Shown here: piece after piece, positions 2,573 through 12,379 of the stretch
Position numbering within the stretch: the stretch's first letter is position 1
Layout: every line of letters starts with the position of its first letter
Assembly: GCF_050920415.1 (NCBI RefSeq)
Contig: NZ_CP169309.1
Direction: 5' to 3' (one strand)
DNA length: 64,000 nt
Origin: Escherichia coli
Lineage (GTDB): Bacteria; Pseudomonadota; Gammaproteobacteria; Enterobacterales; Enterobacteriaceae
Translations under genes and position numbers: made by a program
Notes under the pieces: generated by a model
Told to the model about the DNA's origin: nothing
Databases searched by the model: none
The model's input: only the letters and a program-made list of their open reading frames with translations

Positions 2573-5134
2573 TTACACCAGACTCTTCAAGCGATAAATC
2601 CATTCCAGCGCCTGACGCGGGGTAAGTGAATCCGGGTCAAGATTTTCCAGCGCTTCGACCGCTGGCGACGTTTCTTCCGGTACTGACAGCAAAGACATTT
2701 GCGTACCATCCACTTGCGTAGCGGCGGCGTTCGGCGAAATGCTTTCCAGTTCACGCAGTTTTTGCCGTGCGCGCTTAATCACCTCTTTTGGCACGCCCGC
2801 CAGAGCAGCAACCGCCAGGCCGTAGCTTTTGCTCGCCGCGCCATCCTGCACACTGTGCATAAAGGCGATGGTGTCGCCGTGCTCCAGTGCATCGAGATGC
2901 ACGTTGGCGACGCCTTCCATTTTCTCCGGCAGTTGAGTCAGTTCAAAGTAGTGGGTAGCAAACAACGTCAACGCTTTAATCTTATTCGCCAGATTTTCAG
3001 CGCACGCCCATGCCAGCGACAGACCATCGTAAGTGGACGTTCCGCGCCCAATCTCATCCATCAACACCAGGCTGTACTCCGTGGCGTTATGCAGAATATT
3101 GGCGGTTTCGGTCATCTCCACCATAAAGGTTGAACGCCCGGATGCCAGATCGTCAGCCGCGCCCACACGGGTAAAGATACGATCGATAGGTCCAATCTCG
3201 ACTTTTTGCGCCGGTACGTAGCTGCCGATATAGGCCATCAGCGCAATCAGTGCGGTCTGGCGCATATAGGTACTTTTACCGCCCATATTCGGACCGGTGA
3301 TGATCAACATGCGACGCTGCGGCGACAGGTTCAGCGGGTTAGCGATAAACGGCTCATTCAGTACCTGTTCAACCACCGGATGGCGACCTTCGGTAATGCG
3401 AATGCCCGGTTTATCAATGAAGGTCGGGCAGGTGTAGTTCAGGGTATAGGCTCGTTCCGCCAGGTTTACCAGTACGTCGAGTTCTGCCAGTGCGCTCGCG
3501 CTCTGTTGCAACGCTTCCAGATGCGGCAACAGCAGGTCGAACAACTCTTCATAAAGCTGTTTTTCCAGTGCCAGCGCTTTACCTTTCGAGGTGAGTACTT
3601 TGTCTTCATACTCTTTTAGCTCTGGAATAATGTAGCGTTCGGCGTTTTTCAGCGTCTGACGACGCATATAGTTGATGGGTGCCAGATGGCTTTGTCCACG
3701 GCTAATCTGAATGTAATAACCATGCACCGCGTTAAAGCCGACTTTCAGCGTGTCCAGGCCGGTACGTTCACGCTCGCGAACTTCCAGACGCTCCAAATAA
3801 TCTGTCGCGCCGTCAGCCAGCGCGCGCCACTCATCCAGCTCTTCGTTATAGCCTGATGCGATAACACCACCGTCGCGTACCAGCACCGGCGGTGTGTCGA
3901 TGATTGCTCGCTCCAGCAGATCGCGCAGCTCTGCAAACTCGCCCATTTTCTCACGCAGCGCCTGTACCGGTGCACTATCGACACTTTCTAACTGCGCGCG
4001 TAGTTCTGGCAGTTGCTGGAAAGCGTGACGCATACGGGCCAGATCGCGTGGGCGAGCAGTCCGTAAAGCCAGACGTGCCAGAATACGTTCCAGGTCGCCG
4101 ACCTGACGCAGTACCGGCTGCAGCTCAGCGGTGAAATCCTGCAATGCGCCAATAGTTTGCTGGCGCTCAAGCAACACGCGGGTATCGCGCACTGGCATAT
4201 GCAGCCAGCGCTTCAGCATACGACTCCCCATCGGCGTTACAGTGCAGTCGAGCACGGAAGCCAGCGTGTTTTCCGCACCGCCCGCCAGGTTCTGGGTAAT
4301 TTCCAGGTTACGGCGCGTCGCGGCATCCATAATGATACTGTCCTGCTCACGTTCCATAGTGATAGAACGAATGTGCGGCAGAGTCGTACGTTGAGTATCT
4401 TTCGCATACTGCAACAGACAACCGGCGGCACAAAGTCCGCGCGGCGCGTTCTCGACGCCAAAACCGACCAGATCGCGAGTGCCAAATTGTAGATTCAACT
4501 GCTGGCGCGCGGTGTCGATTTCAAACTCCCACAGCGGACGACGACGCAGGCCGCGACGACCTTCAATCAGCGACATTTCAGCAAAATCTTCTGCATACAG
4601 CAGTTCCGCCGGATTAGTGCGTTGCAGTTCTGCCGCCATCGTTTCGCGGTCAGCCGGTTCGCTCAGGCGAAAACGACCGGAACTGATATCCAGCGTCGCG
4701 TAGCCGAAACCTTTACTGTCCTGCCAGATAGCCGCCAGCAGGTTGTCCTGACGCTCCTGCAACAGCGCTTCATCGCTGATGGTGCCCGGCGTAACGATAC
4801 GCACAACTTTGCGCTCAACCGGACCTTTGCTGGTCGCCGGATCGCCAATTTGTTCGCAGATGGCAACGGACTCGCCCTGATTCACCAGTTTGGCGAGGTA
4901 GTTTTCCACCGCATGGTATGGAATCCCCGCCATCGGGATCGGCTCTCCCGCGGAAGCGCCGCGTTTGGTCAGTGAAATATCCAGCAGTTGTGACGCACGT
5001 TTTGCGTCGTCATAAAACAGTTCGTAAAAGTCACCCATCCGGTAGAATAGCAGGATCTCGGGATGCTGGGCTTTCAGCTTGAGATACTGCTGCATCATGG
5101 GCGTATGGGCATCGAAATTTTCTATTGCACTCAT
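2573..5134 (-). CDS. mutS: DNA mismatch repair protein MutS
   Basis: 853-aa ORF; Walker [10 protein letters not shown]; full-length MutS architecture. Confidence 0.97.
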
Positions 5135-5380
5135 GGGGTTATGTCCGGTTCCCTGATATTAAATGGGGTGTGATGGTTTTTATTTTCGTTGTAATCACAT
5201 AAGGCGCACATGATACCGGAGTTAATCATTTCAGGGGAAGAAGCGAACGGCGAGTTCTTGATGGTGATTCCGGGAAAGATGCTGTTTTGCAGCTTTTGCG
5301 TGATGCTTATGAAGCAAGTACGCAAAATTGTATCAGTTGGCGACCCCTTCTTCTTCAGAGCCATAGTCCCCTTTCAAATT

Positions 5381-5403
5381 AAGTTGTAATATAAATACAT
5401 CTT
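5381..5403 (+). promoter_or_regulatory. Candidate NsrR operator (11-1-11 inverted repeat AAGTTGTAATA-T-AAATACATCTT) upstream of ygbA
   Basis: Resembles NsrR consensus AAGATGCATTT-N-AAATGCATCTT; lies about 20 bp upstream of the ygbA start. Confidence 0.55.
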
Positions 5404-5420
5404 AAGAGTATGGAGGCAGC

Positions 5421-5774
5421 ATGTCTGGCAAGCGTATCTCTCGTGAAAAACTGACGATTAAAAAAATGATCGATCTTTATCAAGCGAAATGCCCGCAGGC
5501 GTCAGCGGAGCCGGAGCATTACGAAGCGTTGTTTGCCTACGCGCAAAAACGGCTGGATAAATGTGTGTTCGGCGAAGAGAAACCCGCCTGTAAGCAGTGT
5601 CCGGTGCACTGTTACCAGCCTGCAAAGCGTGAAGAGATGAAACAGATTATGCGTTGGGCCGGGCCGAGAATGCTGTGGCGTCATCCGATCCTAACCGTAC
5701 GCCATCTCATTGATGACAAGCGTCCGGTGCCGGAGTTGCCAGAAAAATATCGCCCGAAAAAACCTCGTGAATAG
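5421..5774 (+). CDS. ygbA: Nitrous-oxide-stimulated-promoter family small protein (cysteine-rich)
   Basis: 117-aa ORF with CPxxxxxxxxxC...CKQCPVHC cysteine pattern; position between mutS and fhlA. Confidence 0.85.
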   Translation: MSGKRISREKLTIKKMIDLYQAKCPQASAEPEHYEALFAYAQKRLDKCVFGEEKPACKQCPVHCYQPAKREEMKQIMRWAGPRMLWRHPILTVRHLIDDKRPVPELPEKYRPKKPRE

Positions 5775-5812
5775 TATACCGGACAGGCAGATCTGTCCGG
5801 CACCTCATGCAG

Positions 5813-7891
5813 TTAAACCAATGCCGATTTATCAATCCCCAGTCGTTTCATCCGTGATAGCAGTGTGGTGCGTTTTAGTCCCAGACGTTGCGCCGCGCCT
5901 TTCGGCCCGGCAACCACGCCGTTAGTCTCTTTTAATACACGCACAATTAGCTGATATTCATCTTCGCCCTCCTGAGCGACGACCGTTGCAGTCGGCGGCG
6001 TTTTAGGTTCCGGTAAAGCAATATCAGGCAATGACAGCTGCAGCACGTTGCCACGTGTCAGCAATACCGCGCGCTCAATGACGTTTTCCAGCTCGCGTAC
6101 ATTACCTGGCCACTCCATATTGCTCAACGCGCGCAATGTTTCGGCAGGAATGCTGTCGATATTACGCCCCAGACGGCGGGCAATTTTAAAAGTAAAGGCT
6201 TTCGCCAGCAGCGGAATATCTTCCGGACGCTCGCGTAGTGGCGGCAGGTGGATCGGGAATACGTTCAGACGGTAATAGAGATCGCTACGGAACTCGCGGT
6301 CGGCAACCATTTTTTTCAGATCGCGGTTAGTCGCGGCAATTAAACGCACGTCCGTCTGTATAATTTTATTACTGCCGAGACGTTCAAACTCCTGTTCCTG
6401 TAATACACGCAGCAACTTCGGTTGTAACTCCAGCGGCATATCACCCACTTCATCGAGGAACAGGGAGCTTTTATCCGCCAGTTCAAAACGACCGATACGC
6501 TGGGCGCTGGCTCCGGTAAACGCACCACGCTCATGGCCAAACAGATCGCTTTCCAACAATCCGGCAGGCATCGCCGCGCAGTTCATTTTTACCATGCGGC
6601 GATTATTACGCCCACTGAGATTATGGATCGCGCGGGCAATCAGCTCTTTACCAGTGCCAGTTTCACCGAGGATCAGAACTGTACTGTCACTTTGTGCCAC
6701 CATTTCAACTTGTTTAAGCACGCTGTACATGGCTTCACTGCGACCAATAATCTCGCCAAATTCACTATCAACATTGTTGAGCTGCTCGGTCAGGGCGAGA
6801 TTTTCATCAACCAGTCGTTCTTTCAGACGATGAATTTCCTGATAGGCAAGGGCGTTATCGACAGCGATTGCCACACGTTCGGCAATCTGGCGCAGTAAAT
6901 TCAGATTGGTCGTGGTAAACACTTTCTCTTCGCATTGCGCCAGTTTCAGCACGCCCAGCATGGTGTCGCCAGACATCAGCGGTAACAGGCACAAGGTTTG
7001 AATCTGGTTGCCCCAGGTGTCGAACAACATGCGTTCGTAGGGGGCTAAATTATCTCGCTCGTGGAGATTAATCAGCAGCATCTCTTTGCTTTTAAACACG
7101 CGTTCGGTGAGGGTTCCTGCTTCATCGACTTCGCTCTGTTCGTGAGCGGGATGCTGTTTATCAAGATAGTGAGTGGAGTAGATGTTGAGTTTGTTTTTAC
7201 GGTGGCTGCGTAAGACGATGCTGATATCGTCAATGTCGAAATAGTAATGGATTTCTTTGGCGACTTCGCTGACCAGTTCGTCCATATCCAGGCGAGAAAG
7301 CACCGCGTTGGTGATGGCAACCAGGATGCGGAAGTTATCGCGTTCCCGGCATAACAACTCATAGTCGACATTATTGACGACGCGGCTCTGGATTTGTTCG
7401 GTGACGACAGAAATGATCTGCGTAAAAGTTTGCAGGCGATTGAACTCTTTTTCACTCCACGGGCGATCGTCATAACGAATAAATTCACAGCCACCAAAAA
7501 TATGCCCTTCCGCCGCCAGTGGCATCAGGCAATAGTGACCAAATTTGGGGTATAGCCCACCAGCGGCCAGCTGCGGCCAGGTTTCACAAAATTCTTCGTA
7601 ACTGCAATGCAGTGTATCAGGGCGCGACAAAATGCTGCGCACCGGACCGTGTGCCAGAACAGTTTCGTCTTCATAATTTATGGGGGTGTCTTTTTCACGC
7701 GACGCGTAATAAGACGCACGTTGAGTATGCGCTTGCCACAACACAATAGCTGCATTGTCGGCGAGCGCAGAACGCTTTACCAATTGCGAAAGAGCCTCAC
7801 ACAGCGAGGCCAGATCGGGCTGCTGCAATAGTGTCCGAGTGATGTCGAACAACCCTTGTTGTCCGAGATCACTCATCGGTGTATATGACAT
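5813..7891 (-). CDS. fhlA: Formate hydrogenlyase transcriptional activator, sigma54-dependent enhancer-binding protein
   Basis: ORF 5813..7927 trimmed to the MSYTPMSDLGQQ start (692 aa); AAA+ sigma54 activator motifs GETGTGKE and GAFTGA; C-terminal HTH. Confidence 0.93.
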   Translation of the reverse strand: MSYTPMSDLGQQGLFDITRTLLQQPDLASLCEALSQLVKRSALADNAAIVLWQAHTQRASYYASREKDTPINYEDETVLAHGPVRSILSRPDTLHCSYEEFCETWPQLAAGGLYPKFGHYCLMPLAAEGHIFGGCEFIRYDDRPWSEKEFNRLQTFTQIISVVTEQIQSRVVNNVDYELLCRERDNFRILVAITNAVLSRLDMDELVSEVAKEIHYYFDIDDISIVLRSHRKNKLNIYSTHYLDKQHPAHEQSEVDEAGTLTERVFKSKEMLLINLHERDNLAPYERMLFDTWGNQIQTLCLLPLMSGDTMLGVLKLAQCEEKVFTTTNLNLLRQIAERVAIAVDNALAYQEIHRLKERLVDENLALTEQLNNVDSEFGEIIGRSEAMYSVLKQVEMVAQSDSTVLILGETGTGKELIARAIHNLSGRNNRRMVKMNCAAMPAGLLESDLFGHERGAFTGASAQRIGRFELADKSSLFLDEVGDMPLELQPKLLRVLQEQEFERLGSNKIIQTDVRLIAATNRDLKKMVADREFRSDLYYRLNVFPIHLPPLRERPEDIPLLAKAFTFKIARRLGRNIDSIPAETLRALSNMEWPGNVRELENVIERAVLLTRGNVLQLSLPDIALPEPKTPPTATVVAQEGEDEYQLIVRVLKETNGVVAGPKGAAQRLGLKRTTLLSRMKRLGIDKSALV

Positions 7892-7964
7892 TTTGTTCTT
7901 CCAGGAAAGCACCGCAAAGCGGTGCAAAAGGTCATTGACTAAATATAGGAGATTTAGAATTTTA

Positions 7965-12255: not shown

Positions 12256-12379
12256 GCTGAGGCTTTGCCCGTTTTGCAGGCGTTACGCCTGTTTGGGGAT
12301 GGGCGTGTCGATGAGTGTCGAAAATGACATTTCATCGGCATGTTTTCGTCAAAAATGACAATCACCTGAGGAATGCCTG

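Follow-up and report, generated by a model that had tools for sequence, protein, structure and literature searches.

An NsrR operator upstream of ygbA in Escherichia coli, conserved across Enterobacterales and most likely lying over the ygbA core promoter

Background

Is the imperfect inverted repeat just upstream of ygbA in this Escherichia coli strain a binding site for the repressor NsrR, and does it place the gene under nitric oxide (NO) control? The window –the whole 64-kb stretch of DNA analysed here– is a chromosome segment of a non-K-12 E. coli strain. Its mutS-ygbA intergenic region spans 286 bp and is 100% identical to that of strain MFDS1022581 (NZ_CP169399.1). The genes and the translation signal that frame the question are the following:

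2573-5134, minus strand: mutS, divergent from ygbA across the 286-bp intergenic region
5411-5415, plus strand: Shine-Dalgarno sequence GGAGG of ygbA, read from the sequence and conserved within Escherichia
5421-5774, plus strand: ygbA, 117 aa, the regulated gene (open reading frame; RefSeq annotation; Pfam PF11756, YgbA_NO)
5813-7927, minus strand: fhlA, the next gene after ygbA

The match of the YgbA protein to the Pfam family YgbA_NO is strong (140 bits, E = 4e-41). The gene of the repressor, nsrR, is absent from the 64-kb window and was found in 5,425 of 5,426 complete E. coli genomes.

Control of ygbA by NsrR has been described before. In PMC1274295, hmp, ytfE, and ygbA are recorded as genes repressed by E. 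coli NsrR (YjeB), with gATGyAT-N5-ATrCATc as its motif. Both PMC1274295 and PMC5320621 trace the repression of ygbA in E. coli to Bodenmiller & Spiro 2006, and the latter also cites a K-12 ChIP-chip study that located NsrR at the ygbA promoter (Partridge 2009). In a Salmonella nsrR mutant, the ygbA mRNA was 31.8-fold up (PMC2884951). For E. coli CFT073, PMC5320621 counts ygbA among the genes most strongly induced by nitrate/NO and includes its allele of the site among 27 predicted 11-1-11 sites (Table 4). The NsrR ChIP-seq of the same strain gave no ygbA peak, which the authors consider a probable false negative.

Results

The operator and its half-sites

The initial annotation had read the sequence at 5381-5403 as AAGTTGTAATA-T-AAATACATCTT, an inverted repeat of 11-1-11 architecture. 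The reading is exact: the arms occupy 5381-5391 and 5393-5403 on either side of a single T at 5392. The 11-1-11 architecture holds as well: when the right arm is reverse-complemented, it reads AAGATGTATTT, and 8 of its 11 positions agree with the left arm. The 3' end of the operator lies 17 nt upstream of the ygbA ATG (5421). The elements are:

5381-5403, no strand: NsrR operator, 23 bp, imperfect 11-1-11 inverted repeat, supported by sequence, matrix, and conservation
5381-5391, no strand: left, promoter-distal half-site AAGTTGTAATA, the weaker half (7.7 bits)
5393-5403, no strand: right, promoter-proximal half-site AAATACATCTT, the stronger half (15.0 bits), matching AAATGCATCTT at 10 of 11 positions

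The left half-site presents 3 mismatches against the consensus, and at positions 9 and 11 it does not carry the base that NsrR prefers.

Significance of the motif match

We built a palindromic weight matrix from 16 ChIP-seq-positive 11-1-11 sites of CFT073, taken from Table 4 of PMC5320621. The ygbA site was left out of the training set, so the matrix is independent of the ygbA locus. When the window was scanned with this matrix, as had been proposed for checking the site, 5381-5403 ranked first among 63,978 positions with 22.6 bits, a score bracketed by those of the training sites (13.6-31.4 bits). Exact enumeration gave P = 9.5e-9 per position, which corresponds to 6e-4 expected sites per window and 0.05 per 5.2-Mb genome at this score; against a background of 60% AT, P was about 1e-7 per position. 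A simpler search agreed with the matrix: allowing up to 3 mismatches, the ygbA site is the sole match to AAGATGYATTTNAAATRCATCTT in the 64 kb, and 100 dinucleotide-preserving shuffles of the window gave 0 matches at the same tolerance.

The runner-up of the window, AAATGACATTTCATCGGCATGTT at 12322-12344 (17.0 bits), is located in the hycA-hycB intergenic region, 35 nt upstream of the hycB GTG. This site was included in the training set of the matrix, and its score is therefore not independent. In CFT073, it is the second-strongest NsrR ChIP-seq peak, with 16-fold enrichment, and hycB goes down with nitrate, according to PMC5320621.

Conservation across species

A YgbA protein scan with one genome per species yielded 80 ygbA loci from other Enterobacterales species, including Escherichia, Citrobacter, Salmonella, Klebsiella, Enterobacter, Kluyvera, Raoultella, Lelliottia, Leclercia, Pluralibacter, Phytobacter, and Rahnella. 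At every one of them (80/80), the best matrix match within 300 nt upstream of ygbA sits 12-21 nt from the start codon, and in 79 of the 80 this upstream site is also the top match of the whole ~6.3-kb locus. The exception is L056, where the site scores 3.8 bits.

We aligned the window and the 80 loci on the site and computed the information per column over these 81 sequences. A conserved island of 23 bp, AA..GTA..AT..ATGCA.CTT, emerged with 1.1-2.0 bits per column, and most flanking columns carry ~0-0.3 bits. Above that level in the flanks are columns -17 to -15, those of the Shine-Dalgarno sequence, and the 3-4 AT-rich columns that directly adjoin the site on either side. Within the right arm, the species hardly differ at columns 15-19 and 21-23. 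The footprint over 80 species is a small increment on previous knowledge: it marks the operator boundaries sharply.

The only badly degraded site among the 80 loci is that of L056 (Enterobacteriaceae bacterium UBA5654), AAGAGGTAACATTCAAGCCTCTT at ~2960-2982, which retains the outer AAG...CTT and the TAnnAT. This lineage may no longer be under NsrR control, or the sequence may come from a poor-quality metagenome-assembled genome.

The 23-bp sequence upstream of ygbA is deeply conserved and very likely a real NsrR binding site. The first rank in the matrix scan, the recovery at 80 of 80 loci, and the published derepression together support what the initial annotation had suggested, namely an NsrR-type operator consistent with ygbA being NO-responsive.

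A putative promoter under the operator

A sigma-70 promoter scan of 5050-5500 called no promoter, and we therefore inferred the ygbA promoter from cross-species conservation. The candidate elements are:

5364-5369, plus strand: putative weak -35 element TAGTCC, with a 17-nt spacer to the -10 (conserved island)
5387-5392, plus strand: putative sigma-70 -10 hexamer TAATAT, at site positions 7-12 (conserved TAnnAT)
5399, plus strand: predicted ygbA transcription start, A5399 ± 2 nt, placed from the -10 geometry, 7 nt past the -10

TAGTCC-17-TAATAT agrees with the sigma-70 consensus at 7 of 12 positions (-35, 3/6; -10, 4/6), and the scan threshold was 9/12. Conservation of the TAnnAT pattern is close to complete: T7, A8, and T12 are present in 81/81 sequences and A11 in 79/81, with TAATAT, TATTAT, TAGAAT, and TAAAAT as the -10 forms found across species. 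NsrR preference does not explain A11 and T12 in the ygbA footprint; among the 32 training half-sites, 28 have T at position 11, and position 12 shows no preference (7/9/9/7). With T in place of A11, the site would score 26.1 bits in the NsrR matrix, at the expense of the -10 hexamer. Upstream, columns -17 to -15 read T/C, T/A/G, and G (G in 74/81), a TTG-like sequence at a 17-nt spacer. This -35 island is invariant within Escherichia, and it is the only conserved island beyond the operator, the Shine-Dalgarno sequence, and the AT-rich columns adjoining the site. Site position 19, the predicted start A5399, is A in 77/81 sequences.

On the basis of the conserved TAnnAT and the TTG-like bases 17 nt upstream of it, the operator most likely overlies the -10 hexamer and the transcription start. 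With the start at its predicted position, the operator would span about -18 to +5. The overlay would also account for the imbalance between the arms (7.7 vs. 15.0 bits): the left arm is probably degenerate because it doubles as the putative -10 hexamer.

Proposed mechanism and alternative readings

We are highly confident that 5381-5403 is an NsrR operator that controls ygbA; it most likely overlies the core promoter, so that RNA polymerase would be excluded until NO releases the repressor. A dimer of holo-NsrR, an Rrf2-family iron-sulfur repressor, would bind the 23-bp 11-1-11 repeat. With the repeat lying over the putative core promoter, the bound repressor would sterically block the access of RNA polymerase, an occlusion deduced from the putative -10, -35, and start. 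NO would then nitrosylate the Fe-S cluster and take NsrR off the DNA, and ygbA would be transcribed. The model for this chemistry is the [4Fe-4S] NsrR of Streptomyces coelicolor, a dimer in its complex with 11-bp inverted repeats, whose DNA binding is lost when the cluster reacts with NO (PMC4432287, PMC4861436, PMC5411485, and PMC9338935). By analogy, E. coli NsrR is assumed to have the same cluster type and the same nitrosylation chemistry.

Some of the same features could come from a sequence that is no more than an AT-rich core promoter for ygbA and resembles an NsrR site by coincidence: the TAnnAT at positions 7-12 is conserved, the region is AT-rich, and the left half-site alone reaches only 7.7 bits. 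We find this very unlikely. The right half, AAATRCATCTT, contributes 15 bits downstream of the -10, where there is no sigma-70 constraint, and is nevertheless near-invariant in 80 species; the match keeps a P of about 1e-7 per position even against the 60% AT background; and published nsrR mutants derepress ygbA. There is also little to recommend a palindrome bound chiefly by some other regulator (an Rrf2 protein such as IscR, or FNR, or Fur), with an indirect effect of NsrR, and we give this reading very low probability. The consensus sequences of IscR, FNR, and Fur are not known to resemble AAGATGYATTT, and what the site matches is a matrix built from NsrR ChIP-seq peaks. The argument for another regulator is the NsrR ChIP-seq peak missing at ygbA in CFT073, but the K-12 ChIP-chip result cited in the same paper has NsrR at ygbA (PMC5320621).

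The position of the site invites a different question, that of its target. According to the initial annotation, one intergenic region holds both the site and the mutS promoter, which is correct as geography, the site and mutS sharing a single 286-bp region. It would be extremely unlikely, though, that the site is also, or instead, a bidirectional operator placing the divergent mutS under NO control: it lies 247 bp from the mutS ATG vs. 17 nt from the ygbA ATG, and mutS is not among the NsrR targets in the consulted passages of PMC5320621. Of the 80 ygbA loci, only 25 show a MutS N-terminus in their upstream flank, and in the 55 species without a detected MutS start the distance from ygbA to the site is kept. 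We therefore assign the site to ygbA rather than to the ygbA-mutS pair. As for the repeat acting at the RNA level, it is able to pair (MFE -8 kcal/mol) and might form a hairpin in a ygbA leader transcribed from farther upstream, but the chance of this seems to us vanishingly small. The fold of 5371-5425 is no better than that of shuffled sequences (z = -0.95; 29 of 200 shuffles as good), and the sole Rfam match in 5000-5900 was at chance level (VIS1, E = 0.54). Moreover, Escherichia alleles change at position 4 without regard to its partner, position 20, so that no compensatory pattern is seen, and the predicted transcription start falls inside the repeat.

Variation within E. coli

An NsrR operator serving ygbA can also be followed within the species. 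The intergenic region is a mosaic. Its ygbA-proximal 100 bp (5341-5440) are unusually polymorphic: they reach at least 99% identity to the window in only 13 of 5,418 genomes, so that the window carries a rare allele, and about half of the genomes (2,532 of 5,418) are in the 80-90% identity band. The mutS-proximal two thirds of the intergenic region (5135-5335) are almost invariant between the window and K-12, and near-invariant across Escherichia.

Our sample of operator alleles came from K-12, eight other E. coli genomes, and five genomes of the Escherichia lineage that the species scan had supplied. Positions 4 (A/T), 17 (A/G), and 20 (T/C) vary, with every combination present, and L007 and L090 each carry one rare change, at positions 16 and 19, respectively. 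Positions 4 and 20, which mirror each other in the repeat, carry little information in the NsrR matrix, and position 17 is an R in the consensus. All the sampled variants score 18.2-23.3 bits. The E. coli alleles vary mainly at positions where the NsrR motif is tolerant, so that purifying selection on the operator stands out from its fast-changing surroundings.

Larger changes were observed upstream of the site in two genomes. Strain AHM8C160RI (L090; NZ_CP104598.1, 1-264) has a gene for an InsQ/TnpB-family protein upstream of ygbA, and homology to the normal intergenic sequence restarts only ~27 nt ahead of the operator, right before the putative -35. Escherichia sp. E1V33 (L003) likewise has its upstream sequence replaced. 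Both genomes keep the -35, the operator, and the Shine-Dalgarno core. The mutS-ygbA intergenic junction may be a recombination or insertion hotspot; in Salmonella, the fhlA-mutS interval harbors SPI-1.

Small open reading frames in the intergenic region

RefSeq/PGAP annotates a 59-aa 'hypothetical protein' (WP_000611939.1) at 5210-5389 on the plus strand, which overlaps the left half-site of the operator and ends there. This is most likely a spurious call. As a gene, the frame lacks a coding signature (16 synonymous vs. 60 non-synonymous codon differences, similar to off-frames), its length changes from 43 to 59 aa depending on the allele, and it is unannotated in the ST131, ChlosBP-23-1, and curated K-12 records.

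On the minus strand, an open reading frame covers 5131-5229, with an extension up to 5364, and its end overlaps the mutS start codon in an ATGA. It has a conserved 32-aa form in Escherichia and 77 aa in the allele of the window, and a 6-aa frame, MDIITP, occupies the same position in Enterobacter, Lelliottia, and Leclercia. Its synonymous to non-synonymous ratio (27:52) is only mildly better than that of other frames. It could be an upstream open reading frame translationally coupled to mutS, or it could reflect mere conservation of the mutS ribosome-binding region.

Discussion

The ygbA operator of this strain is a correct rediscovery: both the NsrR control and the 11-1-11 site at this locus were already published. 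Little new biology is added, since NsrR control of ygbA was part of that published knowledge. What the case does illustrate is that a reader working without tools can spot a true regulatory site, and it places ygbA of this strain in the NO-stress regulon. The overlay of the operator on the -10 and the pattern of allelic variation are only mildly new points.

A more tentative idea, which we think is probably wrong but worth stating, is that the operator is dual-coded with the -10. A11 and T12 would be fixed for RNA polymerase, contrary to the T that NsrR prefers at position 11, the left half-site would be deliberately weak, and the alleles at positions 4, 17, and 20 could set strain-specific NO thresholds. 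If true, such allele-set thresholds could account for the missing CFT073 ChIP-seq peak.

Regarding known operators, the closest is the ygbA NsrR site of K-12 and CFT073 itself (Bodenmiller & Spiro 2006; Partridge et al. 2009; Mehta et al. 2015, PMC5320621), which is identical to that of the window in locus, position, and architecture. The K-12 site reads AAGATGTAATATAAATACATCTT, and the window differs from it at site position 4 (T, where K-12 has A). The CFT073 site reads AAGTTGTAATATAAATGCACCTT, as the reverse complement of the Table 4 entry in PMC5320621, and here the window differs at positions 17 and 20. The three alleles are equivalent for the matrix (22.2-22.6 bits).

The E. coli ytfE, hcp, and hmp operators have the 11-1-11 repeat in common with ygbA, with the consensus AAGATGCATTT-N-AAATGCATCTT. 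Like that of ygbA, they lie a short distance upstream of NO-stress genes, and NO or nitrite derepresses them. The main difference is in quality: the ytfE operator is near-perfect (31.4 bits), whereas the ygbA site has a degenerate left arm.

More distantly, the S. coelicolor NsrR operators (hmpA1, hmpA2, and nsrR) are likewise 23 bp long, with two 11-bp inverted repeats separated by 1 bp. They are bound by the holo-dimer, NO abolishes the binding, and a crystal structure of [4Fe-4S]-NsrR with DNA exists (PMC4432287 and PMC9338935). However, their sequence is significantly different from the E. coli consensus, and half-sites are not used by S. coelicolor NsrR, whereas E. coli NsrR reportedly uses them (PMC4432287).
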